Shown here piece after piece: positions 1,778 to 64,000 of a DNA stretch of 64,000 bases (position 1 is the first letter of the stretch; the number at the start of each line of letters is the position of its first letter). The position numbers and the translations under genes were made by a program. The notes under the pieces were generated by a model. It had not been told where the DNA came from and ran no database searches. It saw only the letters and a program-made list of their open reading frames with translations. This DNA is from Candidatus Obscuribacterales bacterium (GTDB taxonomy: Bacteria; Cyanobacteriota; Vampirovibrionia; Obscuribacterales; Obscuribacteraceae), in the NCBI GenBank assembly GCA_965228855.1, contig CBDDIJ010000003.1:2784001-2848000 (forward strand), in the 5' to 3' direction.

Positions 1778-1803
1778 TACTTGCCAACGGACTGAGAGAA
1801 TTG

Positions 1804-2422: not shown

Positions 2423-2650
2423 GAAATAACCATCCCATACCCGTTTCCGATGATCGTAACACAGCCTGACGACTTGTGGTAGTTGGTTTATCGAAATGCG
2501 AATTACGTGAAAACACGGACGAAGTGCTCTTTTCGTTGAACATGAAAGCATTCATAACTCGCAGGGCATAGATCTGAAGAAGATAAGATGACAATTTGCG
2601 CCTGGAGGTGTTTCAATGGCTCAATGATAGCCCCGCGTCCGGTATCAATT

Positions 2651-3235
2651 ATGTCTAATGGTTTAAAGCCTGTTGTCTTCCTAGATCGCGACGGAACCCT
2701 GAACGTGGAATCAGGATACATCCGCAACCTTTCGGATTTAAACTTGATCGAAGGCGCCGGAGAGGCAATCCGGAAGCTCAATTCCGCTGGAGTAGCGGCA
2801 GTGTTGGTAACCAATCAAACAGGAGCAGCACGCGGATATTATTCGGAGGAACACATCCTCGATTTGAATGCGCGACTGGTGAAACTGCTAAAAGAAGAGA
2901 ACGCCTACCTCGACGACCTCTACTATTGTCCACACCTGGCCGAGGGGACAGTTGCTCCCTATGCCAGAGAATGCGACTGTCGAAAACCGGCTCCTGGTCT
3001 GGTTGAACAAGCGTATAAAGAACATCCTGAATTGGATCGGGCTCGTTCCTTTGTGGTCGGCGACAAGGCTACCGACGTGGAACTCGCCACTAATTGCGGA
3101 GCAAAAAGCATTCTGGTTGAAACAGGATATGGCAAACAAGTTGTGGCGGGCGAATATCAGTGGAAGGTCACACCTGACTTCCAGACAGACAGCATCGTGC
3201 AAGCCGTTGAATGGATACTCGCTTCATTGAAGTGA
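2651..3235 (+). CDS. gmhB: HAD-IIIA hydrolase, heptose-1,7-bisphosphate phosphatase/histidinol phosphatase family
   Basis: FLDRDGTLN, VTNQTG, YYCPH, CDCRKPAPG and VGDKATD motifs; start ambiguous (2588-2651). Confidence 0.8.
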   Translation: MSNGLKPVVFLDRDGTLNVESGYIRNLSDLNLIEGAGEAIRKLNSAGVAAVLVTNQTGAARGYYSEEHILDLNARLVKLLKEENAYLDDLYYCPHLAEGTVAPYARECDCRKPAPGLVEQAYKEHPELDRARSFVVGDKATDVELATNCGAKSILVETGYGKQVVAGEYQWKVTPDFQTDSIVQAVEWILASLK

Positions 3236-3300
3236 TCGGTGAACTAATAAGTGAACTAAGCTGAGAACTAATCGACTTCGGTAACTGACTTCGATAACGG

Positions 3301-6467: not shown

Positions 6468-7328
6468 TCAATCCTTGAAGTGCTCTTTGGAGCCGCGCTT
6501 GTTATGGCGCGTGTGATGACCAGGCCCGGATTTTTTGCGAGCATCCCCCCGCGACGAGCTTTCGTCACTGCCGCCCCCACCCAGCATTCTGGCGGAAATC
6601 ACTTGCATCGCAAATGAAGGTAACGCCGACAAGATGCGCTGAGCGCGCCACGGTTCAGATACAAGACGGTAAAACCATTCGAGATGCAGCTTGCGGAAAA
6701 ATGCCGGAGCTCGCTTGGTGAAGCCGGACCAGACATCAAAGCTTCCGCCTACGCCAATTACGACTGCATGGCCAAACTTTGCCTGCCAGCGTTCAATGAA
6801 AAATTCCTGGCGCGGAACACCCATTGCGACAAGCACCAGTTTGGGATTCGCAGCGGCAATCTCATCGACCATCGCTTCTTCCTGAGCGCCATCAAAAAAT
6901 CCGTCATGGCTGGCGACAATATTGATTCCTGGATGACGGCTCGGCAGAGTTGCGAGCAGTTTTTCCAGAACTTCGCCACGACCGCCAATCAGTGCGACCG
7001 GGATACTGTGCCGCGCTGCGCTACCTAGAGCTTTATCAGCGAGTTCGATTCCCGGCACGCGATAACACTCATGTCCATCAAGACGAATCGCCCAGACAGC
7101 GCCGGCTCCGTCGGGCACGATCAGATGCGCGTGACGAATAATGCGGTCCAGATCAGCATTCTTTTGAGCCTGTATGACCATCTCAGCGTTTATCGTCACC
7201 ACGTGCATGCCGCGATCGTTAGCCCATGCTCGCTCAATTCTTTCAAGCGCCTGGGTTTCGTCGACGACGTCGACCGGATAACCCAGAACTTTCTGGCGGG
7301 CTTCTGATGTTGACGGCGTCATTGGCAT
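6468..7328 (-). CDS. WecB/TagA/CpsF family glycosyltransferase
   Basis: VVTINAE, PDGAG, RVPGIEL, VAMGVPRQE, GVGGSFDVWSG, KRAP, LEWFYRL motifs. Confidence 0.9.
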   Translation of the reverse strand: MPMTPSTSEARQKVLGYPVDVVDETQALERIERAWANDRGMHVVTINAEMVIQAQKNADLDRIIRHAHLIVPDGAGAVWAIRLDGHECYRVPGIELADKALGSAARHSIPVALIGGRGEVLEKLLATLPSRHPGINIVASHDGFFDGAQEEAMVDEIAAANPKLVLVAMGVPRQEFFIERWQAKFGHAVVIGVGGSFDVWSGFTKRAPAFFRKLHLEWFYRLVSEPWRAQRILSALPSFAMQVISARMLGGGGSDESSSRGDARKKSGPGHHTRHNKRGSKEHFKD

Positions 7329-35817: not shown

Positions 35818-35844
35818 TAGATGTTAGTTGGGGCCACAATCCGT

Positions 35845-36153
35845 ATGAAGATCAACCACTGGGGCAGGGCGCGCCAATTCATCAAAGACCACCCTGAAGC
35901 AGCTAACCCTTTGCGAAACTGGAAGAAGTCCGTCGTCGAAGCCACTTGGACCAGCTTTCCAGAAATCAAAGAGACGTTCAACAGTGTCGATTGGTACGGG
36001 GGAGCGATCATCTTTAACATTGCTGGCAACAACCTCCGACTGATTGCTATCTGCCGCTTTGAATTAGGCCGACTGTACATCGACAAAGTATTGACGCATG
36101 AAGAATACGATAAAGGCGCCTGGAGAAAGCGTTACGATAAGAAAAAGAAATAG
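35845..36153 (+). CDS. higB: Type II TA toxin, HigB family
   Basis: W..F.EIK.TF.SVD...IIFNIAGNNLRLI...VLTHEEYDK; toxin-first gene order; start 35845 (alternative 35821). Confidence 0.88.
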   Translation: MKINHWGRARQFIKDHPEAANPLRNWKKSVVEATWTSFPEIKETFNSVDWYGGAIIFNIAGNNLRLIAICRFELGRLYIDKVLTHEEYDKGAWRKRYDKKKK

Positions 36154-36165
36154 CGGAGGTGACTA

Positions 36166-36588
36166 ATGAAACTAGTCTACAAGCCCGACAAGAAATACCT
36201 AGACTGCATCAAGCGATTTCCTCTGAAGCCACTGCGTTCAGATGAAGAAAACGAGATGGCCGCCAAAATTTGCGATGAACTCTTGGACAACTTCGATTCT
36301 CTATCGGAGCAAGAGCATGATTATTTTGAGGTTCTATCAAAGCTGGTCGAAGAATACGAATCACAATGGCAAGAAGAGAAGAATGTCGAACCCCGTGAGC
36401 TGATTGTTTTTCTCATGGAGCAAAATAAGCTCACTCAAACCGATTTAATACCGGAGTTTGGTAGTTCTTCTCGCGCTTCCGAATACTTGGCTGGTATGCG
36501 CGATTTATCGCTAAAGCAAATACTCAAACTTGCCAAACGGTTTCAATTATCTCCAACAGCATTCATCAGCAGAGAGCAAATGAAGTGA
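36166..36588 (+). CDS. higA: Type II TA antitoxin, HigA family (HTH)
   Basis: LVEEYE...FLMEQNKLTQTDL..FGSSSRASEYLAG.R.LS..QI..LA.RF. Confidence 0.88.
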   Translation: MKLVYKPDKKYLDCIKRFPLKPLRSDEENEMAAKICDELLDNFDSLSEQEHDYFEVLSKLVEEYESQWQEEKNVEPRELIVFLMEQNKLTQTDLIPEFGSSSRASEYLAGMRDLSLKQILKLAKRFQLSPTAFISREQMK

Positions 36589-40025: not shown

Positions 40026-41054
40026 TTGAGTAATTGTTCTAGCCCAATTTTGAGGAACAAGGAGTTTATCGAAACAGAGATTCACCAGCCTGAACCTGGG
40101 CAGCGATTCTATCGTCATGAAGATATTGCGGGATTTGCAATCAGAGCGACGCGCAAGTCGAAAGCCTATATCCTTGAAAAACGTGTAGGCGGCTCGACCA
40201 GAAGAATGACAATTGGAAAGTGCAGCGAAATGTCGCTAGAGTCGGCACGAAAGCAGGCTTGCATAATGCTGGGAGAGATCGAAAATGGCAACGATCCACG
40301 AACCGGCAAACGCATCAACACGCTGAGCGATATCACGCTGAGAGAAGTGCTCCAAAAGTTTTTGGAGATCAAACCAATTCGACAGGCTACAAAACAGAAC
40401 TATGTTTCGGCGATCAATTGTCATTTCCAAGACTGGCTCGACAAGCCAATAACATCGCTCACCAAAGACATGGTGGAACAACGTCATCAGGATCTCACCA
40501 TCGCACCTAACCGATTGGGACAATTGAATTGGAGTTTTGTAGATTTCGAGAATAAAATCCTGAACGTTCCTCGTGAACTTACAAAGTGTGATCGCGAGCA
40601 TCGACTGCCGCTCAGCGATTTTCTGCTCGGGCTGCTGAAGAGGCGTTATATGTTTGCGAACAATTCCCAATGGGTCTTTCCATCGGTACGAAACAGCTAC
40701 AACTGCATCAGCTCTGGCTCCGGGCTTGTGCGCAGAGTGCGAGCAAAGAGCGGCATTAAATTCTCGATGCACGATCTACGCCGAACGTTTCTGACGATGG
40801 GCGAGAAGTTAGAAGTGCCACCATATGTTTTGAAGAAACTGGTCAACCACAGCGTAAATGACATAACGGGGCGATACCTTGTTCTGGACATTGAACGTCT
40901 GCGACAACACATGTCATTGATCACCGACGGATTTCTCAAACTTCTTAATGTCCAGGACGGTGAAGTGATCGATTGCCACCTTCAAGGCGAATGCGACTTT
41001 GCGGAGGTTACCCAGCTTCGCATCACGTTCGAGGATGATCTTCTCCCAGTGTAG
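40026..41054 (+). pseudogene. Tyrosine integrase (arm-binding N-terminus) with an apparent in-frame internal deletion
   Basis: Arm-binding N-terminus (GFAIRAT..SKAYIL..RRMTIG..SLESARKQA) and C-terminal HDLRRTF, NHS and Tyr are present, but the box I TGxR catalytic Arg region is absent (APNRLG joins directly to QLNWSFVD). Confidence 0.7.
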
Positions 41055-41419
41055 GCAGAAAATGCGCATACAAAACTTCTACAGCCTCAACCTCGATGTG
41101 CACGCTCAGCTTCCGGCTTCACCAAATATGGTGGCAGTCGGATCTACAAATCGACTACACAGCGGTGCCGAATACGGTGGCGCCGTTATTGTCTTAGTTC
41201 TAATACTATTATCAACACTAAATCCGGACAGAAATGATTTTGTCCAGCATGTGCGGCCGGTCACGACAGCGCAACTTCGCTAGTTTTAAGCACTCGTTCA
41301 GATAAATTGCCATGGCCCACCGCTGCTTTGGAGTCACGTTGCAGTCACTTGGGGTCTATATTAAGAGCGTTCAGACAATATCTCACGGGAAGCAAAATTA
41401 CCGAACGCTTATCCACTTT

Positions 41420-43367: not shown

Positions 43368-43651
43368 CGGATGTCGTTGCACTCCGCATAACACAGACTC
43401 CAAGCCTATCACAGTCTGGGCTGGTTTCTAGAACTCGAAAAAGCTATCAGACGAGGTCCCGGAGATCGGAGAGCCGATATCCTGTCTGACAGGATTTAAT
43501 GTGTCCGGAACTTTTTATCTTTGCTTGTGATACTGAGAATACGACAAAGTATTAAACGCGCGAAACCTGACCCCTCGCGACTTTGAATTTTGAAGCTCAT
43601 CTCCAAAAGCTCTCAATGTGCTCTGCAGACCATATTTAAACTGAAGTGTAT

Positions 43652-46600
43652 ATGTTTACTATGGGAACAACGAACTCGGCTACGTTGTGTTGGTTGTCTA
43701 AAACTTTGTCAGAGAATCGCAAACAACCCATAGACCAGACCTCGGATAACGATAACGAGGATGACTCCAGCGTCGACGAGGCGCTGTCAGCTTCTGCAGA
43801 AAGAGATCATGAGCCTGCCAGCTCGACGACTAGCGACAAGAGCGACAGAGCAACCGACGCTTCCGAAGATACGCAAGAGTCCCAACAAGAGACCCAAGAA
43901 GACGCCCTCGACAGCACCAATGAGTCTAGCGAAGGTGGAGATGTTATCAGTGATGGACTGCGCGAGGAACAGAAAGCCAACCTGGCAGAAGCGAAGCAAC
44001 TTCTAGAGACCCATGGTCTTAAGTTGAGAAAGGAAGACGTCCCGGATATCGCGATAGAGAACGGTCATGGTTTTACTCGAAAGTCTCACCAACACGAACA
44101 GCTTGGCAAAGTTTCCAGAACGACTCTCGATGACGGAACACTCGAAACAGCCTTTGAGAGACATCCGGATTTTCGCGCCCTTTCGTTCAAACCTGGTGAG
44201 GCGCCGACAGCCAAGTTAAGACAAGATCTGGCAGATTTCCCTGAAACAAGAGCGGCTCTGGAAGTCGGAGAGCCGACAACCTTCAAACCCGGCGCCCCCA
44301 GCAACAGCAAAGAACTCGAGGGGTTCTTTCAGAAGCATCCCGAGTACAAATCACTGACACTGACAAGAGGGCACAACGCTAGCGCCGACCTTCCGCCCAC
44401 GGCAGAGTTGGATAGAGGATTCACAGGTCCTGCCATCATGGGCGGTACTGACGCCAACGGTCAGAAGTGGCTGCTACTAGCCAATGGGGCTGCGGAAAAG
44501 TTCATACAGGGCTCGGAAAAGGGCGAGCAAAGTATCGTGCTCTTTCATCCCGAAGATCCAGAAGGGCGCATGGCACAGGTCCGGTACCAGGATCATGCCG
44601 AGACCTTCTATTCGAACGGTCGAAAAGTAAAGTCCTCCGATTACAAATCGACCGGCGAAGAGGCGGCTCCAGTGGTATCGGACACCCGGGCTCCAGCAGG
44701 TCAGGTAGCTCCAGGAGGAGGAGGCGAGGGAGTAGTGGCAACTCCGCTAGCCACGCCTGTTGTCACCGAAAGCGATACCACACAGAAAGAAACAATTCCA
44801 CCGGCAGACGGACAGACACAGCTACCTGAGCTTGAGAAAGTCTCCGCTGAGATCCCAGAAGAAGTTGCTGTCGAAGTTCAACCCGAGATCGGAAAACCAG
44901 TCATTAGCGACGGCGCCGATACACAGAGACCTGATTCCGACAGCAACGAGAACTATAGCTCCGGAGCCGAAGGTAGCGACAGCAACGGTACCTTCATCAC
45001 GGAACGGTTCCAGGGTCCCGAAGACACGGGTTCAGCATTCGACAACTCCGTCGCCGAGCGTAACAAATTCCAGCAAGAACAGCAGCGACTCATCGAGCAG
45101 GAGAAAGAAAAATTTCTGGATCTTCACGCGTCGGGCGAGGAGAGACAAGAAGCCATCGCCGCACTGGAAACGCTTCTGACGAGCCAGTCGGACGAGAGCC
45201 GCACTGCCATGCAGAAAACGATAGACTTCTACAAAACAGCCGATGCTGTTCTGAGTCTCGGAAAAGCTACTGCGGGACACAGGTTCGAAACAGTAAGAAC
45301 TCAACTGCTGAGTCCATCCACATCCGACAGCGCCATCGTCGCGATTTCCAATATAGCCAACGGCAGCAACGGAGATCAGCAAGAGACCGCCAGAGCAAGA
45401 GAAATGCTCATGGACTTCGCCAAAAGAAATCCGGCGACCGCCGACAAAGTCATCGATGCACTTCTGGCATCGAGAACGGAAGGCGACAAATTCGGATCGC
45501 TTACTTTGGCTACGGAGATTGCAGCCGAGACCGGGAGGTCGACTACAACTCTCAAAACTGCGCTCTACGATGGCTTGAAGAGCGAGTCCGCTTCCGAGAA
45601 AAATAGCGCCTTCTTAAACATGGTCAGACTTTCCGGTAGCTGGTCGAAAGAAGATGCTCAAGCAGTCGCCTCCTCACTGACCCCGGGAGAGGCTAGAGAA
45701 ATTCTTGCTGTAGCACCGGATACGATTAGTGCCCATCGTGATGCCATGGCGCCGATCCTTGCCGAGAAGTTGGGCCGTGAATGGTCCGAATCAGACGCGG
45801 GACGCGTTGCTGCTCTGCTTTCGGAAGACGTAATTCAGGCCATAGATAGAGCTTCGCCCTCGGCAATCGACCGCGTCGCTGACCATATCCACAACAACCT
45901 GGTAGCCAACCGCACTCCGGCAGATCTGGAAGCGGGAGCTAAGCAGGCGCTGGAGAGACTGAGTGCGCTCAAGACACAGGACTCGCCGGATGAGCGTGAA
46001 GTGGAAGTTCTTGCAGCCGCGGTTCAAAGATATACGGACGCAGTGGCTGACCAGGCGAGGGGAAGGGTCAACGACCCCACGAAAGCGAAAGCGGCTAACG
46101 AAGCGCTGGAGCGCCTTGGACTGCAAAGCGATACCGGCCGCGAATTCGTCATAGACAGTATCGTCGCACACCAACCGCCTCGCAGCAAACAATTCGACAC
46201 GTTAGGAACGTTAGGCAAACTCATTGCCGCTTCCGACAATGTACCATCAAAATCCAGAGAACTCTATGCTAGCGTCCTGGCTGATGGGAACCCGATACAA
46301 CAGAGAGCTGCTATCGACAGCATGAAGTTGTTTGCAGACAAGTGGACATCCGAAGATGCAGAGATTCTGAGAGACAACCTTTCTTTCGAAGCGATCCACA
46401 GGCTCGTCTTGACGAAGCCGAACGTCATGGACAAGCAGATTGGCGATACGACTTTGAGAAAGTTCCTTGTAGAGGGACTCAAAGAGAAAGTGTCCAGCCC
46501 CGATGCGAAAACCAGAGAGACAGCGGTAACAGCGCTCGGAGTAGTGGGTGGAAAACACGCACTGAAAGATGCAGGTCTGGAAGTCTCTTCCTATAGCACT

Positions 46601-49600
46601 GACGGTGACAGCAATAGATACAGACTCTACGATCCCAAAGGAACCTACTATAGGTTCCAAGAATTCAAGGACCGCGATGGTGTTCTGCTCGAACAAATCT
46701 ACAGAGGAAATGAAGCGGAGCTGTTCGTGGATTGGAAACGAGGTCCAGGTGGTTCGGTAGAACTCAGCGCCGTTCGAGACACCGTAAGAAAACCTCCATT
46801 CGGAGCACAGTTCGGATACGACGGCAATTACGACTTCAGTTACGAGGGCGGATACAAGAACGGAATCCGCTCGCTGAACGAGAAGGAAGCCGAGGCATTC
46901 AAAGCTCAGTACGACGAGCTGAGGCACAATGGCGACTTCTACACCCTCGGTCAGAACGATGGTTTTCACGAGCTTCCCGCTCCGGTCGAAGACTTTTCTC
47001 CTCCTGCGGCAGACACCGCAGGCGATATCACAGCGCCGGAACGCGGAATCGATACGAAGGCGGAAGAAGCAGTCGAAATACTAGATAAGCTGAAGCAAAT
47101 GGCTATCGGGCCACCGCCGAATACCCAAGCGCAAGACCAGCTTATCAGCATTGGAGGGGTTACCGGTCCACAAAACCGCGACAGATTACTGGCTCGAAAC
47201 ATAGAGGCTGTCGATGGACTCATCGCGCAGCTCAAACGCCAGGATTCGCCTTCCAGATTCGCGGCGATGCGACGTTTGGAGAGTGCGCTGAAACCATCTG
47301 AGGGTCAAGAGTCCGTTGCAGAGCAGCTCCAAGATGCTCGTATCGAACAACTGATGAACGGAGTCGGTCCAGAATCATCGGCCGAAGAGTTGGTTAGACT
47401 ACAAACCCGACTAGTGGAGCAACTAGAACTCGCCCGCGAAAGTAACGATCAGAAAACCGCAGTCAAGCTGCACGACAAAATGTTATGGGTAGGAACAGCC
47501 CACGCTATCGCGCAGCTTAACGAGCTAGATCCAGCATCAACAGATACGCCGGCTCGATCACGAGAGCTTGTAAACAAGCTATTCGTGGAAGCCCAAAAGG
47601 GCAATAAACATGCTCAGACAGCGATGGCTCTCTTAGCACGCGATGGACAATCCGATACGCAAGAGAAGATTCAGGCGCTTGCTTCAGGAGACGGGCAAGT
47701 AGGACTTGCCACTCCTGACCTCAAGAATCTATCGCCGGATCAGCGTCTGGCGATATCCAAGATTGCGACGAATCTTATTCAGCGAAAAGTAAGAGCCACC
47801 GGTGGTGATATCACAGAGGCGGAGGTCCTTGCTGTCACCAGCGCATACAATGAAGCCAACGTCAGAGGAGATAGTGATACCGCCAGGTCCATGCTGGATA
47901 CCCTGGATCTAGCATTATCGCGAGATGTAAAAGAGTCGGGAGAAGGTAGGACCGATAGGCAAATTACAGTCGAAGCTATAAGCGAGTTACTGAAGACGAG
48001 CATCGGCAACGATCAACAGCTCCGCGATCGATACCTGACTTTCGCAGACAGCGCCCAACTCAACAATGACCTTCCCGCACTACGAGAACGATCCGCCACC
48101 GGAGATGAAGCAGCGATGTATCTCATGGCGGGCATCGCGTCGAGCGACAAGGGTGATGCTTCGAGCACCGCCAGCGGTGAGTTGCTCGACTTGGCCCAAA
48201 ATGAGAGCCTTCGTGAACTGGCAATGAAAGCTGCAATCGATGCGAAAAACGCTGAGACGGGAGACAGGGGCGACGCCACCGATCTATTCAGAGCCATGGC
48301 GGAACAAGGAACTGTTCCTGAGTCGGTAAAAACATTGCTTCACTGGAAGCTAGGCTCATCGGACCCGTCGGACAGAACACAGGGCGCGAGAGCACTGGTG
48401 TCTATCGCAGATCGATGGACCGAGCAGGACGTCGCCCAGATAAAAGACAATATGAGTCAGGAGCTGGCGCAAGCTGCTGCGGAACTACCTGACGGCGTAG
48501 ACGAAAAGCATGTCGCTTCTATTCGAGAAGGACTGGCAACAACGCTGAAGAACGAATCCAGTGAGGCATCGGCGAAGGAAGTAGCAGTCCAGGCACTCGC
48601 TAACCTCGAAGGTGAAGCACTTCTGCTCGACGCAACGAAACAAGAAGCACTGGGTCTCAAAGCGGAGAAAGATGGCGACAAAACGACTCTGATCGACTCG
48701 AACGGCACCAGATACAAATTCTCAAGGACCGGAGATGGTTCAGTTCGTCTTGATAGATTGGAGCGCTCGGACAAGAGCTACCGTGAAAACAAATACAACG
48801 AAAACGGTGATTTCATCGGAGCGGAAGAGGTCACGGAAAGTGGCGGCAAGCTGAAAATCGACGGTGACAATAGAGGTGTCGAAGTTCGCAAGCCGAACGG
48901 AGAGTTCATCAAGATACAATCCGGAACTGACGGGAAGCCATCAGGCGTAGTCGATAGCAACGGCAACGGATGGTTCTCGAAAGATGGTGGCACCTCGTGG
49001 ACTAGAAGAGGCACGGGAGAAAAAGCATTCGGAGAACCGCTTCTCTCTCCCGATGGATCACTCCGTTTCCACAGCGGAGAGCATCAACTCGATGTATTGC
49101 AAAAAACAGATGGCACCATAGAGAGTGTCGACCATAAACGTCATGAGACGACTGCAATCGGTCCAGATGGTTTCTCCATCACACGCAACGATGCAGGAAA
49201 AGTCGTCCGGACGAGAGACGCTGATGGAAATGAAAACCTCTACAGCTGGTCCCGAGATAACAAGACCCTGCTGGGCGTCATGGACAAGACCGGAATGTGG
49301 AAGAGCGATGATGGAATTCGCTGGAACCATCTCGGAGCTCCGGGTGAGACCACGACCGGAACTCGATCTGTGGATGAAAGCGGTCGATATCACGTCTTCG
49401 AAAACGGTCCTCAAGGCAGGAAAGAGACTATTACGGGGTTGGACGGTTCGAAGACCGTCAACCGTCCAGATGGTAGTAGCGAAATTTACAATCGGAGAGG
49501 AGAGAAGTTCACTGTCCGCCACGAAGGGTCTCCATCTCATCTCGCTGAAGTCGATGATCCAAGCGGGCTGAAGTGGAAATCTGCTGATGGCAAAACGTTC

Positions 49601-52600
49601 ACATTGATGGATGGCGATGAGCCGTCGGACGTCACAGCGACTATCGAGCTACAGCCCGACGGCACCTTGAAGAGAACCATTTCGAAAGAGAGTAGAGAAT
49701 CTGCTGCGGAAAGAGGACTGGCAGTCGACGTAGTCTCGAAACCCGATGGAATCAGTATCTCTAGAGACTCGCAGGGACGAATCACGGAGATGACCGGAGT
49801 CGGTGGCGAGAAATCGACGATCACCTACGATGAAAGCGACCCTCAAAAGATCAAGCGCCTCAAGACCGTGCACCCGGACGGTCGGGTCGAAGAGATACAG
49901 CAGACATCGGACGGCAAGTGGAGACAGCTGTTCAAAGATTCGGTCACTTCAGCCCCGCACGATGCGACCAGGGAGCACATTCAAGCCGACAGGATAACAT
50001 TCGATCAGAGCACCGGCGAGCTCACATTCCTCTCCAATGGTGCATCGAAAGTCGAAGTCTCGAGAGACGTCACAGGTCACCGGTACAACTTGCCCTGGAC
50101 TTCTCAGACGACGGAAGCTCAGAAGCACAACTACGACAAGCTGGTCAGAACCCTGGATAGAGGTATACGGGGTTATAGAGATGTGGGTGAAAGTCTTCGA
50201 CTAGAAGACACGTGGTCAGGCGACGGGAGTAGAGAATCGGTCCAGTGGAGTACGACTGGTGACGTATCGAGCGAGCGTACCGTCCACAACCTCGACGGAT
50301 CTGTGGCCAAGATAGACGCTCTAGGCAGAGTTACCGGTGTCTCCGGTCTTGCCAACGACGCATCGATCGATATCAAATACGGTGACAACGGTGAAGTAAC
50401 TCTAAGGGACTCATCAGGACAGCTCTGGGAATCGAAGGATGGTCGTGTATTCCACAATCCCGAGACCAACGTTACTCTCAGATGCGAGCTGTTCGTAGGG
50501 AAAGACGGCAAGTTCGGATTCGATCTCAACGGCGGAGCCAGGATGACACGAGATGTCTCTAGCCGAGAGACTATTTTCTCACCGCCCGAGATGTTCCGAC
50601 AGCCGAGACTGAGTCCACCGGAAGCTCAGGTTGCCGGCGTCGTTCTGAAAGACTCGGGAGAGCGCCTCGAACTGGACGGAAATGGTCTGGTTATAGCCAC
50701 CCAGACGAACAACGGCCGACGGATCATTGCCACTAGAGACGGTGCCGGTAATCTGACATCGGCAAAGGTTATGGTCGGAGATCAGGTAGCTAGAACCTAT
50801 ACGAACACGAATGGACAGTGGAGTCTCGACGGTACTCCGATGAGAAAAGGCGCGCAAGCCAGCCTTGATCGTAACGGTGACTTCTTCGTCTTCGAAGACG
50901 ACATCGATAGAAAACCAGATTTCGTGCAACGGCTGGATGGAACCCGAATCGAGAAGTCGGAATCGTTCGACATTCCGAACGGCTCGAAATACGTCGTAGA
51001 AAGTCCGAGTGGAGAGATATCAGAGTTCCACTTCAGAAGAGGAGGAGCCGAACCTGTCCTCATCATGGAAGGTGGAAGAGTTCAGCAAGATGGAACGATT
51101 CAGTTCCCCACAAAGATAATAAAGCTGCCCAATTCCAACAATACCTACTCCGTAATCAAGAGTGACCGCGATGGTGCTCAACCAGCAGGCAAGACCTGGA
51201 CAGGCGAGATTCGTTTCGACGCCTATACTGGATCGACCTATTCATCAGGTAAATATCCTGATTCCTCCGCGAAGACGGAGGTGCGAACTTCAGACGGATG
51301 GACGTTCGATCCTGCGTCCAGTGACAAGACCCAGAGAAAATTAGAGCCGAACGGCGCACTCTTGTTCCGCAAACCGACCGGAGAGCTCTATGAAGCCAGT
51401 CGACCAGACGGAGTCCATCTGTCGGCAGAGCGGAATTCGATCGGTATGGTCGACACAGTCACATTCAGGAATGACTTGGCTAAGACGAGCGAGCAATACA
51501 AAACATCCGACGGTAAACACTGGACAAGAACAGTAACCGATGGAACAGGCAAAGCTGTTACGGACGAGTTCGAAGGGAGCGTCTCGGTCTCCCGAGATGG
51601 TGACGTAACAATTCGGAAGGCAGATGGAAGCCTGGAGCGCAGATTAGCATCAGGCGCTGACATAAAATTCGACGCCACCACAGGCGAAGCCACCGTTGAC
51701 AGACCAAGTGAAGTCAAAGTCGGGGATCAATCTTACGGTAAGACTCTGCACATCGGCGGCTTCGGGGCGAACGGACAACCTAACAAGATCTTCAATGGAG
51801 ACGGAACGTACTCGGCTACGTCAGATGGCGTTAGCTGGAGAAAGTACGATGGTCAGGGAAGTCCGATAGGCGAACCATTCAAGCAGACCGTCGAGTTCAA
51901 CCTGGAGACGGGAAATCTCAAAGTCACGAAGATGGATGGCTCGAACCCTCCCAGACCGGTGAGAGTAGAGAGCATCAACGGAGACGGCACCCATAGGATT
52001 TTGGAAAACGTAGGTCTGGGTGATCAACTAGACTTGCGCGTGACGAGCGAGTCCAATGAATACGGAGAAGTAATCACTCACAAGTACGAGGGTGGTGCGA
52101 AAAAGGGCACGCATGTTGAGAACAAAGATGGAACGTACAAGGACTTTATTGTCTACAAATCTCAGGGACGGGAGCAGATGCTGCTGTCTGGCTTCAAGGA
52201 CTCCTACGGACGGCAGACCGAGATAAATTGGATAACTCAGAATGGTAGACCGACAGTCGCATCATATACAGATGAATATGGCGACAAATGGCAGCTTTAC
52301 AATGACAACAAATACCGAAGACAGACGGACAAAGGTCCCCCGGGTCCAAAAGTTCACGGTGGAAAAGTCTTCGTAAACCGCGAAGGTCAGCTCGAGATGA
52401 TGATGAAAACCAGCTCGAACCTGACGGCACTCGATGGCGATAACACAACGGTCAATGTCCGTATCGCACGTGGTATCGAAGGCCATATCATCACGCAATT
52501 CCAAGAGCATGGCGGTATCACTGTCAAGGGTCGCGAGAATGTTGTCGAACGAACCATCAGGGCTGACGGAGCTGTCCACCAGTTCAGCTACAGCAGAGAG

Positions 52601-55600
52601 AAAGGTCTTATCAAGCTGGACCGCTATGGTCAGCCGAACATCAATCAGATAACCGAAGGCGATTCAAACTCGAGCGAGAAATGGGATCTGATCTACCTCA
52701 AGTATGGTCATAACCAGGAAAAGCAAGAGTGGAAGCCAATGCGCTGGAAGAGCAGCGCCAATGGGAAGGAGATGGATGCATTCTGGCGCTTGGATCAGCT
52801 CACAGGCGACATGAGTTGGTTCAATTCCAATATGAGCCACCAGCACTATTCATTGGCTGGCGGCTGGGACAAACTTCATGGAGGAGAGCACCTTCGAAAA
52901 GAAGCAGATGAAATCGCCAATGTTTTCGAGAAGTGGTGGATTTCAAACTACGCTTTCTCTTCTGCAAGTCGATATTCCGATTTAAAATCGCACCTGGAGC
53001 CGCTCACCGGCGACCAGATGCAGATGATGCAGTACTACCTGCATAATCACGAAGGAAAACCGGACCTACGGCAGAAAGTCGATGAGCTGTGGAGCGGTTG
53101 GGAACACGACACCTTAGAAGGTCATCTCGATAGGACTGCTCACACCAGAGATACGGATGAGGCTGAAAGAGCCGACGTCAGAATAAGATCGGCACTGGCT
53201 GAGATGAGCACATACTCTCAGAGGATTCAGACCAGCCAGACCAGAGCCCTCGAAAAAGAGGTTCGAGACTCTCTGGGCGCGTTGAACCAGACGCAGTTGG
53301 AGCTGCTGCAAATCGCCCACAACGGCGGAAACAAAGACGCCCCGACACTCTTGCAAGAGATCCAGGAGCACCCCAGATGGAAGAATGCTCCGGAGATTCA
53401 CCAGAAAGCTCTGAAACTCTATCTGGAGAAAGGCAAAGACGAGCGGACGCCCAAAGAAGAAGCCGAACTCATGGCACTGGCGCTGCAGTACACGGCACCA
53501 GGCGTCGGTCGCAACAGACATATGCAGTATGCTCCTGCCTCCCTCACACAGCGATTAGAGTATTTCAGAGAGTTTTCTGCGGCTGACAGATCCAGTGATG
53601 AAGCCAGAACCTACTTCAGAGAAGAGATGGGTGGAGCGGCACTACTGGAGCAAGCCTTCGTACGCGAATATCAGCGTACAGGAAATCCGGAAGACCCCAA
53701 CTCATACAATTACCAGAACGGATTCTTCAAGGTAGCAGACTGGGATCCAAATCGACTGATGACGATCGGGCGAGACTACATGCTCGACGGCAAGATGCGA
53801 GCAACCACCATTATAGAAGAAGGAAACTACCTCTTCGGAGCCTCGAGAGCGAGCATCGAAGACACCTTCGCGCAGATGACTCCGGACGATCGAGCACGTT
53901 TGAGACGCGGTCTCGAAATGCACATGATTATAAATGACAAGATCGAAGTTCCAGCGGCAGAAAAAGCCGCAGTACAAGCGCTTCTCGATCCATCGAACAC
54001 TTCGGCTGAGGCGAAGAAAGCCCGAGACGACTACGAATACTTCACAGACCTCAACACCAAAGCCCATGATTGGTCAACATTCGGACGAGATCGACGTCAG
54101 ACGGAATACGTCAGCCTGGCATCGGGAGCAGGATTCAGTCATGACATGGGCGAGGCCACAGTATCGACCATGTGGTGGAATGCTGACAAAGAAACCCACA
54201 TGAGTCAAGTCGAGAACATGGACAGAGAGAGTTTCGATCTGTTTATGTCAGATAGAGCGTTGAGAGCGCTCAACACTGACTTCATGAAAGAAAATTTCTC
54301 TGGATACACGCGTGGTGATGCAGCCCTGAAGCTATTCAATGACAAGCTAGCATACGCTGACAGCCTGGAGAAGATGTCGGTTGACGACCTGGCGAGACTC
54401 TTACCGGGAACACTGGAGCTATCGAAGCCAGAGCTCGATATTTTTATGCGAACGCGAGCACTCGATAGAACAATCGCAGAAGGTGCGACAATTCAGCGCT
54501 CCATCAATAAGGGAAGAGAGCTGGAAAGAGGCATCACAGATGGTGCTGAGATCGCACGCAAGATAGAAGCAGGCTCGCTATCGGAAGCAGGTCTTGGAGA
54601 CGCAGACAAAATCGCGCTCGATCTGTTCAAGGCACATAGAGATGGCAAACTGACCGATGCACAAAAGCAAGCACTAGAAGCACTCCATGTAGACAACGGA
54701 AGAACTCTGTCGCAGCGACTGGCCAAAGGTAAGGAAGTAGCTGACAGAGTGGAAACCGATCCATCTGGAGAAAGCGGACTTTCAGACGCAGATAGAACGT
54801 TGCTGCAACTATTTCGAAGCTCTGAAAAAGGAGAACTCGATGCTCAGAACAAATCCGATCTGGAACTCTTCCAGGCGAAGAAGAGCGATGCGAAAGAATC
54901 GGCACTAAAAGAATTCCGAGATCATCAACAAACACTCAAGCTCGTGGATGAACTTCACGAAGGAAGAGATCTCGCTCGCGACATCAATGAAGGACGACTG
55001 CTTGCCGAAGCAATCCAGAGTGGCAAGGCGGTTAGCGGTCGACTCGGTGGTCTATCCGGTCAGACCAGGACCGATGCAATTGCCGCCCTATCTGCAGCAG
55101 ATCGCGTCAGCCTCAGGACATTCGAGCGTTTCGAAGCAGGCAAGATGACCGAGAGCGAGCGAATGCAGATCGAGTTGCACAAGGCTCAGCAAAACGGCAG
55201 TCTGGGAGCACATAGACAGGGACTTCTCACGCAATTCGAGAGATGGCAGAGAACGACTGGAGAAAAGCTCGCTGCCGAATTCGATCAAGGCAAAGCAGTC
55301 AATGAGAGACTGCTCAAGCGAAACCCAGCCGATAGACACAAAGCGAGGACAGAGCTCTCTCCTGAAGATCGCCATGCCCTCGATACTTTCAACAGCTTGG
55401 AATCAGCCAGGAAACTTCAAGCCGATATCAACAGCGGTAGAGAGCTCTCGCTGAGTCTCGAAAGCGGTGCTTCCAGTGCTCAATTGACAGACCAGCAAAA
55501 GTATCAACTGGCGCTATTCGACCAATACAAAGCCGGCAATCTCTCTCAATCTCAGACCGAAGCACTCGGCAAAATTCAGAGTATAGATGCATTCCGAGAC

Positions 55601-58600
55601 GGATCGGAATTAGAGAAACTCGATGAAGGCAAGATGCAGCGCCTGCATAAACTCGAGTCGCTGACGATATACAGGGAAGACATAACCGGATTGAAATCTT
55701 TCCTCGATGGAAGGGAAGCGGCACTGGAGTTGCGAGCAGCAGGTACGGCCGACAGACGAGAAGCATTGTTGAAACAATGGGAAAGTACCGCCGATGGTGC
55801 CGACAAACTTCAGGCGTTGGAACAATACAGAAGCGCCGTCTACGATCTAACGCAAAACAATGTCAGAAGAAGCATATTCGACGTTCTCGAAGACAACACC
55901 GGAAATCGTGATGCTGTCTTTAACGCGATCGAAAATATGTCAGCTTCAGAGCGACATGCCTATGCCACCAATGCTGAGGTAAAGATAACGGTCAACGGAG
56001 AGATCAAGACCGTCAAATTCAAAGACTATCTCGATTCTAAAATCCACGAGGAGTTCACCAGAACGACTGGACGCAATCAATCCAAGAGTACGAACCAGGA
56101 TGCGGTCAAGGCTGCAAAACATCTGCTCGATCAGATTGAACACAATCCTGACCACAAGCCAGAGAAAGATATCGTATTCGAGCTATTCGAGCTGGAAGCC
56201 CGACCTGGAACCACAAGAAAGGACACGATCGAAGCACTGCACAAAGCTTTCAACGGTCCTCATGCCGCAGAACTTCGAGCCCGCCTGGATAACTCGCCAG
56301 GCAACAGCAGCTACGATCCGAAATTTGCGGCGGCCTTCGAAGCAGCCGTCAAGTCATCCTTCCCAATGCCACATACAACTACCGGCGGTCGAGGCAAGGA
56401 TAGCAAACCTAAGTGGAATGCTGAATCTTGGAATGCTCATGTTCAAGAGAAGTACATAGATCCGGTCATCAAGAATGGTCACGTCTCCCTTGAGACGCTA
56501 AGAGAGCTTCACTCCTCTAACGGAGCTGCAGAGGCAATTCTGCAGCTCAACAAAGAATCGCTCGCTCATTTGAAAGCCACTGAAGGAGACAAACTAGAGC
56601 AGTTCTTGAGTGGAGTCTTCAGCGACGACCAACTCACTCTAGTACAAAAAGTACTCGAGCAAGGCGAGGTCCGGGTCGAAGACAAGCTATTCGCGCTGCA
56701 GGCAGGTGTCCTACCCAGAGAGCAACTGAGAGATGTTCTTTCCGAGATCAAATCGCAGACCCAGAGAATGGAAGTCGCCGACGGCTACGCGGAAAAATAT
56801 GGTGGCACAGCCATGCAGGCCATGCTCGACTTCGCACCTCCGAAAGACCAGGGAGCAGTTAGAGCGGCACTCCACTACAGAACGTGGACGAACTTAGATC
56901 ATCAGACCAATATAAGAGACCACATCAACACGGTAAACAACTGGGACAACTGGACCTATGACGGTTCAGACGAGCTCCTCGTCAATTCTGGTATCCAGGC
57001 AGGGGAGAGAATCCAGCAGGCTAACACGGCATATGAAACGTTATCGGAGGCAGAGTTTGCCAGATTAGAAAGCAATGTGTGGAAGGCGGGCGACGCGCAC
57101 ATTCGTTCGCAAGAAGAATTCGCAGAGATGGCTACGGATGGTGCCATCATGGCAGCGGCAGCAGCATTGACTGTATTTTCGGGAGGAACTCTCGGACCTG
57201 TAATGATCGCTTCGTTCACGCTCATGGCTGCAGCGGCCAAGATGGGCGGCAAGGCCATGCTGATGGGAGACAATTACGACGCCACCATGCAGCAGATCCG
57301 TCGAGATCTTGCGATGGGCGCAATCAATGGTTTCACCGCAGTCGTAGGGCCGGGAGAGCTTCTAGCCATGACCCGAATTGGGGGCGCGGCGGCTCAAACG
57401 GCAGCCACCAAAGTTATGACTCATGCGATGTTCGAAGGCATGGAAGCGACGACCAAAGCAGCTATCCAGAAAGAGTTGGCACTGGCTGTGCGAAAAGGTG
57501 TTCAACAGGGAATTCTCTCCGGGGTAGCAGGTCAAGCAGACAACAAGATCATCGAACAGGCATTGAAGAACCTGGTCACCAAAAAGCTTCTCACACCAGA
57601 AATGGCTCTCAAAGCAAGAGGTCTGATACAGACGGAACTAACCAATGCCATCATCAGCAATGGCAAGAGCTTCCTCATGAGAGAAGCCCTGGCTGGAGGA
57701 GCAGCACTGGTCAGTGGAGAAGTCGGCACTGTAGCGATGACCACAACGGACCTGTACTTCCAGGGAAAGCTGACTTTCGAAGGCTTCATGGACGGCTCCA
57801 ACTTCACCGAAGAGAACATGAAGATGTTCCGAGATGCGAGCATTCGCGGCATCGGTGGCGCCCTGACCGGTCACATGGCCGGTCGTGCAAGTGCGCTGGG
57901 AATGGGCGCCGGCAGAATTCAGAAACTGATGGGAGACCAAGCAGCAGGGCTCTACTCTCTCACCAAGGCTGGTGGCATCATGATGACCACCATGACAGCA
58001 ACCAACATATTGACCGAAAATGCCATTGCATCGCTCGACGGAAAAGTCTATGACGGTCAGGGCATGATGACCCAGACACTGATGGCAGGATGGGCCCCAT
58101 TCTTCCAGCAGATGCACGGGATGAAAGAGATGTTCTTGCCGGGACGAGGTCCGTCCTTCGCGCTCGGGTTTGCCCCCCGACAGGCATTCGGTGCTGGCGA
58201 ATCCGTCACCGGAAAACCCACGCACAACCACGCTGCAATCGAATACACGCAACCGAGGCTGCAGGATGCTGACTTCACGGGTCGCGCCGCGGTCATCGAG
58301 GATGGCAACGGGACAATAAAAGGTGGTGGTCTGGTAGAGCTGAAAGGCAAGAACACCAACATTGAAATCAATGCACCAAAAGACGGTGACCCGCTGGTCG
58401 TTGTAGTTGCCGATCCCGAAGCCGCGCGCAATCTCAAGATCCATCCGGACAGTGGTCCGGTGAAGATTGTGGTCCCCGAGGGGTTTGCACTTCCTCCCCA
58501 ATTCGCAGCGGAAGTTTCCAGACGCATGGGAGACAACAGCGCTGAGTACTTCAAACTAGGCGGCGACGGCTCTTTGAACCGTGTAGAAGATCTCGCCCAA

Positions 58601-61600
58601 CCTCTTATAGAAGCGATGGCAGCAAGGAATCCGGAGCTACCGCAGCAATGGAGCGCCAATCGAGATCTGAGTGCAAGTGAAGCACGACAGCTGCGAGAAC
58701 AATATGCTGAGTCTCTAGGTCCGCTCCTGGAACCGAAAATTGCAGAGCAATTCGTGGACACGATGGCGAAGGCTTTGGAAAGCAACGACCCTGCCCTTCG
58801 AAAAGTCGTAGCAGACTTCCAGAAAGCCGACATGGATTATCTGTCGGCGCGAGACGGTTTACTCATCAAAGTAGTCGGAAATGAAGTCAGCACCGATACA
58901 GACTTCTCCGAAGCGGGGTTGATGCGCTTAGCAGCAGGCGATCCTGAGAAGGTTGCTGCAGTTCAGGAATTTGTCAAAGCGAGAGAAGCGAGGGCTGAGG
59001 CTTCTCGTCCGCTAAAAGAGACGATGGATGCGCGCATGGAAGTTGTTCAACAAGCCATCAACGACTTCGCTGCCGAGCACGGAATTCCACCTATCAAGCT
59101 GCAGCGTTATGGAGAGGTTCAGGTAGGCAGCGCAGCTTACAGAGACGGGGAAATAAAGATAAGGAACGAGCATTTACTCGATCCCGCCAAGCTCGTGGAG
59201 GCGACCTTCCACGAACTCACTCACGCGAAGCAAGACAGCGATATACTGCGCTTGATTGCCGATGATCTGGGACTAACCGGCAAGCAGCTCGATGCCGCAG
59301 CCATAGACACGGTGATGGGCGAGTATGCCAAGCGCACCGGGCACGATGGTCCGAGCCCACGACCACCAGCGGCTGACGGTTCGACCAGTCCATCGGATCC
59401 GAGGCAGGTATGGCGGAGCTTCGTCGAGAATGCACTCTCTGAACACAGATCTCCGCTCGATGCCACCACGCGCACAAGAGCGCAAAAAATGGTGGAAGGC
59501 TTCGCAGCCGTAGCCAGAGATCAATCTCGCACGGACGCTCAGATCAACGGTGACTTCAGTGTAGTCAACTCGAAGATGAATCAACTTGATCTTCCTAACG
59601 GAGGTCAAAGACTGCTTGCCGCCCTGAAGAATGCTGACCAGACGTTACTACGACACCTGTTTAACGACGGACAATTGCCTGCCGAAGTTCGGCAGCTTGC
59701 CCAACAGCTCCCTGATGCTACGCGCCTCAACGATCCCTCGCTCGAGCAGAAAGCACAGGAGCTATTGCGCCCGCTGCTGAAGAAGAGAGCTATCGAGCTG
59801 AACGCGGAGAAAGAGCGCAGCTACAACAATTACGTCAGTGCCGCCCACGAGACGGAAGCTCTTCTTGCCGACCAGCTGACAAGATCGCTATCCAGGGCTC
59901 GCTTTAAAGACCAGGGACCAATGCGACTGGGCATGGGTATCGATGCACCGGATGTGGTTGCACGAGATGGCGCTCCTGCGGGCAGGGACTTGGCGCAGGC
60001 AACTGACACTGTCGATTCAGCTCGTAAGAGCTCCGACACAAGGAAAACCGAGATTCTCGGAATACTCAAGGTCGACGACCAGAAACAAGCGATTGAACGC
60101 CTGTTCAAGACACTAGACGATAGGTTAGCGTCAGGAGAAGTGGATCCTTCTACCGCCATCGAGCTACATGACTTGATGTCCAGGGGAGCCAAAGCCGGAC
60201 GGATTATGACGCCCGAAACTCTGGATATGCTCTCGAGGCTCACCAAAGATCAGGCTGGAGAAATTCTCAATTATAGACCTGCCGATCTGATAGAAGTCCT
60301 GAACACTGGTGAGGTGAAACCCGACACCCTAGCTGCACAACTTGCTGATGTCGACACATTCACAAGTACGATGGCGGACGTGAAACGAAACCTGGACATG
60401 GTAACAGCGTCGAAAGCAGAGCGGAACTATAGCCAGGCCGAGCGCGTTAACCGAATCGCTGACGAGCGGCAGAGACAAACACTCTCAGAGCTGTTCCGTT
60501 CTACCGAAATTTCCGAAGCCTGTTTCGAGAAAGTCCTCGACAGACTCTCAGGCAAATCATCTGGTGACCCCAAGTTCGATGCTGCCCTATCACCGGAAAC
60601 AGTGGCACGACTCGCAAGTAGCAATAGCCAAACCGATCACCTCATGCTCAGACATGCGGCATCTCTCACAGATGCCATCTCTAGAGGAGAGCTGCATCGT
60701 CCCCTGGAGACAGTTTCGAGCTTCCTGGAGACGAGCCCCCAGGCGGCAACCTACACCGCGCTACTGGTCAATTCGCCGAATCTCTCCGATGCTCAGGTGA
60801 CTGGACTTTTAAGAGATTTGGCTCATGCAGGTTCGAAAGAGGCGGCGAATACTCTTGTCGTCAGCCACTATGAGCTGAACAACAAGAATCCGAAACTGCA
60901 CCAGAAACTCCTTCAGATAACGGATGCAGATCTGCGGAACAAGCTTACCAATGCAACTGCGTTCGGTCACTTGAGCGAAACCCTTCTGGCAAGAATTACA
61001 GAAGCCCAAGCCAAGAACCCAGAAGTGGGGGGTCTCATAGTAGATCTACTTGCTGATCAGTCGAGAGATACCAACCGAGTCGGCGTGATCGAAAAGATGC
61101 TGGATAGAGGCATCGACGCCACCACCATTCGAAAAGTGAGAGCCGGACTCGCAGAGGGCACGGTCAACCTGAAGAGTGTCGAGGCTATCATATCTGCCGA
61201 CGGAGCTGGCCAAGAACTAGCTATGAGCCTGCTGAGCTCAGGCAAGATAACCGATGGGGCGCTTATCTCAAGAATAGCGAGCGACCGAGACGCTGTTTCG
61301 ATAGCGAGGATTATCGAAGCCGGAAACATTACCGAAGAGCAGTTCAAGAGCCTTCTCAATCTCAAGGGCGATCATGATTTGAGCTTAAGAGCGCTGCTTC
61401 GGGCCGAGGCCGCGTCCCCCGGCACGATGAAGGCTGGCGAGCTGGATACGCTGCTTTCTGATCCTCAGAAAGCTTTCGAACGCTCTCTTCAAGTAGCTCC
61501 GCAGCATCAGAAGAAACCTGCAACCGTTGTCGAACTACAACGCAAGTATCAAGCTCTGAGCAATGAGCTGGCAACGCATCTGGATGCAGATACAAGAGAC

Positions 61601-64000: not shown

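Follow-up and report, generated by a model that had tools for sequence, protein, structure and literature searches.

The 64,000-nucleotide stretch of Candidatus Obscuribacterales DNA analyzed here (the window) ends within a giant open reading frame (ORF) of 8,541 codons, whose product belongs, as one of its giants, to a multi-copy class of paralogues spread across the Obscuribacteraceae. Its long relatives share a repeat-rich trunk that includes a module of annexin-like repeats and a hydrophobic hairpin, and they differ in the cargo behind it. We favor, with moderate confidence, the reading that the giant protein is an exported, membrane-inserting multi-effector toxin that is processed at its linkers and resembles MARTX or polyvalent toxins in its working. 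By the sequence features tested, it stands outside the MARTX, Rhs, and PVC families.

Extent and architecture of the giant ORF

The sequence-only reading of this DNA had proposed that frame +2 stays open for more than 20 kb (>6,780 amino acids) and is still open at the window edge. Translation bears this out: the frame is free of stop codons from GTG 43646 (ATG 43652) to the edge, covering 6,785 amino acids, and closes at G000:C3:2853271 (window-equivalent position 69271), 5.3 kb past the edge. G000 is the source genome, which is 95% complete and in which this is the second-longest open frame. Residues of the giant protein are numbered from GTG 43646.

The ORF is real, intact, and under purifying selection. 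Its orthologue in genome G007 is 97% identical and retains the full frame, and 308 synonymous and 215 nonsynonymous codon differences, evenly distributed along the gene, were counted in 8,522 codons (dN/dS of ~0.23 for this pair if the usual 3:1 ratio of sites is assumed). Public 94-kb contigs from three runs (two samples and two studies; one maybe the source sample) span 10.3 kb at the 3' end of the gene; of the three, two are identical to it, and the third carries a 1-base insertion. In G007, an additional A immediately 5' of TTG 43706 shifts ATG 43652 to another frame, so that translation probably begins at TTG 43706 or a later codon (~8,521 amino acids).

The order of segments given in the sequence-only reading (acidic N terminus, helical repeats, beta repeats, helical region, Ala/Gly-rich segment, HExxH peptidase, papain-fold domain, solenoid, and second peptidase) holds, and the features are as follows, Z1 to Z5 being zincin-motif domains.

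43646..64000, +: giant ORF, first 6,785 of 8,541 codons (frame translation); runs on to G000:C3:2853271; probable start TTG 43706
43706..44992, +: variable N-terminal region, amino acids 21 to 450; acidic low-complexity start, signal peptide absent
44993..48712, +: trunk 1, helical repeats in three units that match one another, amino acids 450 to 1690 (self-BLAST E values of 1e-9 to 2e-5); collinear in relatives, without a Pfam match
48713..52732, +: trunk 2, predicted antiparallel beta-hairpin meander, amino acids 1690 to 3030 (model of amino acids 1690 to 2109, Foldseek, VIA)
52733..56392, +: trunk 3, helical region, amino acids 3030 to 4250, with short internal repeats at 3590 to 3975 (self-comparison, relatives)
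56456..56881, +: annexin-like repeats, amino acids ~4271 to 4412 (family profile against PDB, Pfam in members, VIA)
57047..57925, +: long helix and hydrophobic Ala/Gly hairpin, with apolar helices to ~4750; predicted membrane-insertion or translocation segment (hydropathy, model, alignment)
58133..58525, +: small beta module, amino acids ~4830 to 4960 (matches shared by representatives)
58643..59935, +: Z1, peptidase with a zincin motif and a long insert of helices (HELTH 5189 to 5193, distal HExEA 5401 to 5405); first module after the trunk
59963..61795, +: helical cargo-side region, amino acids 5440 to 6050, without a family match
61943..62605, +: papain-fold domain of the Tox-PL1/Gln-deamidase type, predicted triad C6177-H6264-D6280
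62630..62644, +: linker motif DLAMR, amino acid 6329, a candidate processing site, with repeats at 7621 and 7910
62780..63445, +: octapeptide beta-solenoid repeat, amino acids 6379 to 6480 (8-residue register), and beta module to 6600
63563..64000, +: Z2, zincin-motif domain of the HExxxH form (HELVGH 6729), continuing past the edge to about amino acid 6860
63998..64000 (marker), +: 1,756 further residues past the edge (L001:5001-10271), with modules listed in the next line
Beyond the edge, in order: module 6895 to 7110; Z3 (HEWAH 7260, distal E7303); helical region; DLAMR 7621; Z4 (EEMAH 7805); DLAMR 7910; Z5 (HELRH 8040); C-terminal 280 amino acids; stop

The C-terminal 280 residues have a homologue solely in the near-identical orthologue. 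The annexin-like repeats had been overlooked at first reading, and three of the zincin-motif domains lay past the window edge.

A shared trunk and shuffled cargo

A 1,450-amino-acid core query found matches in 29 of 36 genomes of the same family and in none of 24 genomes from other families of the class. Complete frames of long relatives measure 6,117, 7,025, 7,753, 13,487, and 18,416 amino acids, and an open-ended one reaches 17,441; in other long relatives, the frame is interrupted where a contig ends or, for G006, at a single stop codon. The trunk (amino acids ~450 to 5430) is collinear across several genera: in G026, G006, G029, and G005, at 30 to 45% identity, and likewise collinear in G091, G092, and G093. 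A search for paralogues with a shared N terminus and variable C termini had been suggested in the sequence-only reading. The common trunk and the variable C termini were found, but the N-terminal ~450 residues are themselves variable, and G026, G092, and G006 have ~2,900 to 3,070 residues of other sequence there. Behind the trunk, G026, G092, and G005 have Z2 ahead of the solenoid, the reverse of the order in the giant protein, G029 skips from the helical block (6038) to the module at 6911, and the cargo is multiplied in G026, which has eight HExxH motifs in 18,416 residues. A collinear trunk followed by modules that are reordered, dropped, or multiplied argues for the geometry of polymorphic toxins.

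Named cargo domains were identified in a scan of 23 of the 150 representatives of the annexin-hairpin family. They include Tc-R-P (Pfam "polymorphic toxin DSP-PTPase"; E value of 1.6e-10), PRTase-CE, Phage_30_3, PP2C, dual-specificity phosphatases, a methyltransferase, an EDR1-like peptidase, TPR, LysM, and arrays of FHA domains, which are the commonest named cargo (9 of the 23). The frequency of FHA, the PRTase-CE and Phage_30_3 domains, the at least 150 Ser/Thr protein kinase domains of the source genome (150 of 190 candidates scored), and the absence of a signal peptide, linked export genes, and an immunity gene would all suit a resident polyvalent scaffold, anchored in the inner membrane and never exported, with both arms cytoplasmic and with FHA, phosphatase, and peptidase modules serving signaling or antiphage defense. 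However, RHS repeats, one LysM domain, and the annexin repeats indicate a surface or extracellular role, and the cargo differs radically among relatives, as in conflict systems. The giant copy itself has no FHA match, its cargo consisting instead of five zincin-motif domains, one Tox-PL1-like domain, and a beta-solenoid. We regard a resident scaffold as unlikely, though worth keeping in view.

The annexin-hairpin module

The conserved annexin-hairpin module (profile of amino acids 4250 to 4760) was found in 94 of 104 family genomes, mostly in 2 to 11 copies (5 in the source genome), and forms 360 clusters at 50% identity, with E values up to 1e-30. In a 300-genome sample of the phylum, partial matches were confined to 18 genomes, all from one other family of the class, and nearly all of these matches (E values of 5e-11 to 7e-6) were to the hydrophobic part. 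Among 10 module representatives, three clusters had database names, two being "hypothetical protein" and one "YD repeat-containing protein." Relatives with small genomes in another family of the same class (L074-L082; 18 of 123 genomes) encode proteins mostly of 700 to 2,200 amino acids with a weakly related hydrophobic hairpin.

When the module profile was searched against PDB, annexin VI was the best match (E value of 1.7e-10), and annexins accounted for the first 48 of its 58 rows. Of 14 module members, 8 have a Pfam Annexin match, the giant protein itself not being among them. The model (pLDDT of 80) was aligned by VIA to annexin VI over 135 residues (model residues 24 to 163; Z of 10.0; root mean square deviation [rmsd] of 7.0). 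Since these values lie within the chance range for helical bundles, the sequence profile is the stronger evidence for an annexin relationship; in Foldseek, annexins ranked high for this model without reaching significance. The canonical type II calcium loop (GxGT..D/E) is missing from the giant protein, and the GxGT is kept in the family consensus. At the level of the family profile, an annexin domain lies ahead of the enzymatic domains. Bacterial annexins have been proposed to aid membrane breaching, with an enzymatic toxin always following (Zhang 2012, PMC3482391), and annexin-transmembrane-toxin fusions have been listed consistently with that proposal (Kodavali 2014, PMC3894181).

The long helix and the hairpin are modeled as helices at ~4468 to 4512, 4518 to 4543, and 4548 to 4566, the hairpin lying around a conserved T-x-G turn, in which G265 is invariant and T263 nearly invariant across 59 alignment rows. 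Hydropathy peaks at 4501, 4555, and 4681, and the segment from 4501 to 4700 is hydrophobic and rich in Ala and Gly. Fold searches of amino acids 4250 to 4760 brought out no pore-forming or translocation domain, which is not evidence for a new fold.

The repeat trunk

Repeats make up ~4,000 residues of the giant protein. The helical units of trunk 1 match one another at 556 to 722, 816 to 1024, and 1483 to 1711 (best self-BLAST E value of 1e-9); they had been described as HEAT-like, of which the helical repeats stand and the HEAT label was by eye alone, without a Pfam match. The beta repeats of trunk 2, previously put at ~1,400 residues, are present over 1,340. One alignment row containing an X (L184) was dropped ahead of folding. 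A model of amino acids 1690 to 2109 (420 residues; pLDDT of 94.6) has 40 strands and one helix arranged as an antiparallel hairpin meander. Its top Foldseek matches are Rhs and teneurin shells (E value of 2e-11), but with TMq values of at most 0.23 and an rmsd above 20; the best VIA alignment (Z of 8.6, rmsd of 4.7) covers 66 residues, and the matches are otherwise short or of high rmsd. Pfam RHS_repeat was matched in relatives. The meander thus reads as locally YD/Rhs-like in the model, and an Rhs shell or cage is putative. The two small beta modules behind the trunk (amino acids ~4830 to 4960 and 6490 to 6600) match the same stretches of representatives P0134, P0137, and P0127 and are apparently related to each other.

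So long a run of repeats is also what a surface-displayed adhesin carrying an array of digestive enzymes would have, with a stalk of repeats, an annexin-hairpin anchor, and prey or matrix digested outside without translocation. The cargo of the giant protein consists almost wholly of peptidase motifs, such a role has been proposed for giant proteins of Omnitrophota, and giant proteins containing an Rhs-like antiparallel beta helix have been described from predatory bacteria (West-Roberts 2023, 10.1101/2023.11.21.568195). However, the FHA, PP2C, PTP, methyltransferase, and PRTase domains of relatives need cytoplasmic substrates, and the Sec signal missing here is present in the other giant family of the source genome. 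An outward-facing enzyme array of this kind appears quite improbable to us.

Cargo domains and a linker motif

Motif conservation is high in several cargo modules. The H, E, and H of Z1 are invariant in 21 of 21 alignment rows, and the H, E, H, and two E of Z3, which occurs in 78 of 104 family genomes, are invariant in 30 of 30. Z2 retains HELxGH in 9 of 12 rows (duplicates included), most Z5 rows have HExxH, and in Z4 the first His is replaced by Glu in 6 of 6 rows (duplicates included), giving EExxH. In all, the giant protein carries five domains with a zincin motif, in one of which (Z4) Glu stands in place of His. A PDB profile search with Z1 gave nothing significant, with a weak SprT/Spartan match (E value of 0.017); the Atlas leads for Z1 (0.89 to 0.90) are to LPD23-bearing clusters, and Z1 and Z3 match each other weakly as profiles (probability of 38%).

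The papain-fold domain is predicted to be of the Tox-PL1/Gln_amidase type and to have the corresponding activity. Its triad C6177, H6264, and D6280 is invariant in 10 of 10 rows, with N preceding C in 6, and the conserved cysteine is one of just five in the giant protein. Atlas placed the domain at 0.92 (180 of 256 features), with 22 of 30 hits being PF15644 (Tox-PL1); this placement is moderate evidence because the recognition score falls below the mark of the tool. Pfam Gln_amidase (PF15644) was matched below cutoff in 3 of 10 members (best E value of 0.005). An internal Tox-PL1 domain (NC, H, D) has been proposed to act as an autoprocessing peptidase (Zhang 2012, PMC3482391). The expectation that the C-terminal motifs map to toxin folds is moderately supported for this domain by Atlas and not by any significant Pfam match.

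The pentapeptide DLAMR occurs three times (6329, 7621, and 7910) in low-complexity linkers following cargo modules, and synonymous codons differ among the copies, so that the motif is kept at the protein level. In 13 ORFs, with the duplicate G005 and the near-identical G007 left out, the pattern [DEN][LF]AM[RW], which was set after the same sequences had been seen, was counted 21 times in 55,465 cargo residues and not once in 52,503 trunk residues, with 0.29 expected from the genome background. Six frames carry it, and 9 of the 21 copies are in the 18,416-residue protein. We consider it a candidate processing site; a binding motif is the alternative.

Four large proteins of the source genome lack the annexin-hairpin module (C3:2535636, 5,953 amino acids; C3:2739472, 3,902; C5:792933, 3,521; and C3:2729380, 2,082); those at C5:792933 and C3:2729380 have zincin modules in common with the giant protein.

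Comparison with known systems

MARTX toxins are defined by a C-terminal array of GGxGxD RTX nonapeptides and by MARTX A and B repeats. Like the Vibrio RtxA type, the giant protein is a single giant chain with a conserved delivery part, shuffled effectors, an internal domain of cysteine peptidase type, and likely cleavage at linkers (MARTX processing, PMC6731672). The variable effector array and the linker motif are present, and cleavage is putative. Unlike MARTX toxins, it has one isolated GGxGxD (4247), no T.VG.G repeat, and no Pfam match to the C80 caspase-like CPD; the flanks hold no type I secretion genes, and the cargo lies C terminal of the annexin-hairpin module and not between terminal repeat regions.

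The annexin toxins of PVC and other extracellular contractile injection systems (eCIS) likewise have one or more annexin repeats and a transmembrane segment followed by toxin or metallopeptidase domains, with a membrane-breaching role proposed (PMC3482391, PMC3894181). However, the N-terminal PVC metallopeptidase PF13699 is absent from the giant protein, which is far larger, has multidomain cargo, and belongs to a class expanded over a whole bacterial family; PF13699 and PF04984 have no match in the source genome.

With Rhs/YD toxins (Rhs of type VI secretion systems [T6SS], Tc-C, and teneurin-like proteins), the giant protein shares the beta-hairpin meander, seen in local 3Di similarity, RHS_repeat matches in relatives, and hydrophobic helices before the cargo. 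It differs in the poor global fold match, in the absence of the PxxxxDPxG terminus, in having a cargo that is far too large for a cage and 2,000 residues away from the repeats, and in the absence of a T6SS marker or an adjacent immunity gene. At first reading, too, no Sec signal, RTX nonapeptides, or classical RHS core terminus had been recognized.

The giant proteins of Omnitrophota are also very long and mostly unannotated, come from uncultured bacteria, and have peptidases as well as antiparallel beta repeats (West-Roberts 2023). They belong to another phylum, and that text contains none of the terms "Melainabacteria," "Vampirovibri," and "annexin."

Polyvalent proteins resemble the giant protein in having several interspersed zincin metallopeptidases, including HExxxH and long-insert forms, and mix-and-match enzymes (Iyer 2017, PMC5512222); the peptidases of those with several such domains are described as processing the chain or serving as effectors. 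In contrast, the family studied here is chromosomal and multi-copy, has its own membrane module and repeat stalk, and showed no ArdC-N, primase, RNAP, or helicase in Pfam scans.

Genomic context

The giant gene lies amid ordinary chromosomal genes. Those upstream are divergent; downstream are a 177-base repeated element and then a convergent patatin gene, the next real gene, so that the immunity or secretion genes looked for downstream are not adjoining. There is a weak Imm11 match (E value of 0.036) 2.8 kb from the ORF. No tRNA was found nearby, no convincing DNA repeats were found at the module borders of the gene, and the scanned flanks contain no phage structural or conjugation genes. The 177-base element (L001:10307-10483) follows directly after the stop codon, apparently in two copies and without a Pfam hit. 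Its frame resembles an IS256 transposase fragment. The genes downstream of the stop differ in G007. Positions 40026 to 41283 hold a degenerate tyrosine integrase and, after it, a short frame whose end resembles the C terminus of the fiber family, apparently the other giant family of the source genome; this may be a relic of an insertion.

The integrase, 2.6 kb upstream of the giant ORF, could point to a polyvalent protein of a phage or conjugative element, moved with DNA into recipient bacteria by a relaxase-bearing type IV secretion system (T4SS). Such proteins have one to five interspersed metallopeptidases, HExxxH variants, and inserts between the catalytic helices, as here (PMC5512222); the Z1 leads include LPD23 clusters, and one T4SS-like locus of the source genome (on C3) contains genes for a coupling protein and for Replic_Relax. 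The ordinary neighborhood without phage or conjugation genes, the absence of a meaningful PHROG match in 16 pieces of the giant protein (two weak matches, both to families of unknown function), and a multi-copy family present in 94 of 104 genomes all speak against this origin, which we consider very unlikely.

Two tandem secretin genes lie at the start of the window (2 to 1777 and G000:C3:2782663), the scanned one having a T2SS-T3SS_pil_N N-terminal domain. A HigBA-like toxin-antitoxin pair occupies 35821 to 36588, with a weak HTH_3 match in the second gene and the toxin identified by eye.

Elsewhere in the family, a gene of 175 codons lies within ~2 kb of 11 of 32 family loci, mostly stop-codon-coupled and irrespective of cargo. 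It occurs in 97 of 104 genomes, with up to 18 matches; none of the 8 in the source genome is beside the giant gene. The consensus of its product is GQI..LP..W, FYYRG, VEG.W, and QEI.F.AP (e.g., L212:3108-3647, L213:4104-4619, and G000:C2:1682761-1683315), and a PDB profile search with its alignment gave nothing significant. A likeness to PsbP/DcrB (Eag-like) chaperones was not supported by Pfam, NCBIfam, or family and homologue searches (hhalign, 1.5%). A third recurring family with long, Ala/Gly-rich hydrophobic helices often follows directly after the 175-codon gene (L212:1987-3060, L213, L223, L229, and G026:C1:119207-120676), has five homologues in the source genome, and possibly helps in membrane insertion.

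Export

That the delivery route is unrecognized, as the sequence-only reading had it, still stands: the giant gene shows no linkage to any of the known delivery systems. Signal peptide-like N termini were seen in just 2 of 144 annexin-hairpin family members and not in the giant protein, compared with 19 of 25 members of the other giant family of the source genome (~25 ORFs, e.g., C3:2209806-2238410, 9,534 amino acids), which also has a common C terminus. The motif LPx[VL]x[LI]xD is found N-terminally in 36 of 137 representatives (P0001-P0150, residues 46 to 81) and in 24 of 99 held-out ones, compared with 1% of internal windows, and may serve the shorter members as a signal for export or for a chaperone. 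Across the genome it shows no enrichment (14 of 4,483 genes), and in the giant protein it is unsupported, so that we do not claim it as the export signal of that protein.

No markers of T6SS, type III secretion systems, or eCIS were found in the source genome, where the eCIS sheath (PF04984), PF13699, FlhA/SctV, VipB, and PF03135 gave zero matches. The source genome does contain three secretins, three VirB4/TraG-like ATPases, five matches to the T2SSE ATPase family, and one HlyD above cutoff, 2.8 Mb from the giant gene. Two of the three VirB4/TraG-like ATPases lie in chromosomal T4SS-like loci (G000:C2:1990062-2007728 and C3:3042918-3065575; L137, L139, and L140); neither a coupling protein nor a relaxase was found among the 14 ORFs scanned in the C2 locus. 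Both hold, in addition, very large proteins with multiple transmembrane segments, DUF2225, and pilin-like genes (by eye), few of which Pfam annotates. Of the 104 family genomes, 103 have VirB4 matches, and the orthologue is mostly 71 to 93% identical. A VirB4-type T4SS is thus core to the family and a plausible exporter of the giant protein, with no specific link between the two.

Proposed mode of action

If the giant protein is a toxin, its annexin-like repeats would dock on the target membrane, its hydrophobic hairpin would enter that membrane, and the repeats of the trunk, helical and beta alike, would serve as stalk and adhesin. Export would proceed without a periplasmic Sec step, most likely via one of the two family-core chromosomal VirB4-type T4SS loci, to which we assign somewhat less than an even chance, lysis or vesicles being the alternative. 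The cargo would be freed at the [DEN][LF]AM[RW] linkers by Z1, the Tox-PL1 domain, or a protease of the target cell, and the released zincins and deamidase or peptidase would harm the target. As target, we very slightly favor a microbial eukaryote over bacteria or kin, because immunity genes are lacking and the cargo of relatives includes phosphosignaling domains; bacterial, kin, or self targets stay in play because of the kinase complement of the source genome.

Several observations weigh against an exported toxin of this kind. Pfam tiling of the whole giant protein gave no significant match, none of its domains has a significant match to a Pfam or PHROG family whose function is known, and searching the PDB with profiles of the papain domain and of Z3 returned nothing relevant. 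Z1 follows the annexin-hairpin module in just 36 of 150 representatives, the linker motif is absent from four long relatives (G091, G093, G086, and G026:C11), and the LPx[VL]x[LI]xD motif of family N termini lacks support in the giant protein (position weight matrix score of 0.6). No export, chaperone, or immunity gene adjoins the ORF in the scanned flanks. VirB4 was found also in 10 of 10 genomes without the annexin-hairpin module, so that co-occurrence of T4SS and family does not discriminate, and a substrate of 8,500 amino acids would be extraordinary for a T4SS. With at least 150 Ser/Thr kinases in the cell, the FHA and phosphatase cargo of relatives would be equally sensible inside the producer.

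The toxin reading is nevertheless the one that we prefer. Of the original proposal of a MARTX-like or polyvalent toxin, the conserved trunk, shuffled cargo, invariant motifs, and Tox-PL1 placement are in its favor, with toxicity, export, and processing as predictions; the protein is neither a MARTX member nor a one-off.

Implications for the Obscuribacteraceae

All parts of the giant protein have precedents, and the family itself is apparently undescribed: no description was found in the full-text literature searched, a search that covered neither subscription journals nor supplements. It offers a new carrier architecture of annexin repeats and hairpin, along with a candidate cleavage motif, a partner gene that is conserved, and a large number of enzyme domains without annotation, and annexins, which are rare in bacteria (Kodavali 2014, PMC3894181), are expanded in the Obscuribacteraceae.

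A bolder proposal, which we find doubtful at present, is that the Obscuribacteraceae run a family-wide delivery system in which hundreds of annexin-hairpin carriers of 1,000 to 18,000 amino acids would combine swappable cargo, a partner gene of 175 codons dedicated to them, a [DE][LF]AM[RW] code for processing, and a domesticated T4SS of the chromosome. T4SS-based predation, with a T-type system, has been proposed for Vampirovibrio, the sole predator of the class named in the literature covered (Soo 2015, PMC4451040). If the proposal is true, the Obscuribacteraceae, which are nonphotosynthetic relatives of cyanobacteria, would live by predation or parasitism as Vampirovibrio does, equipped with multi-effector toxins that rank among the longest known. 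A toxin-like family present in 94 of 104 genomes, in several copies and with members of up to 18,400 amino acids, is strong evidence, at the level of genomes, for a way of living driven by conflict, and it supplies markers with which this way of life can be tested in the Obscuribacterales.

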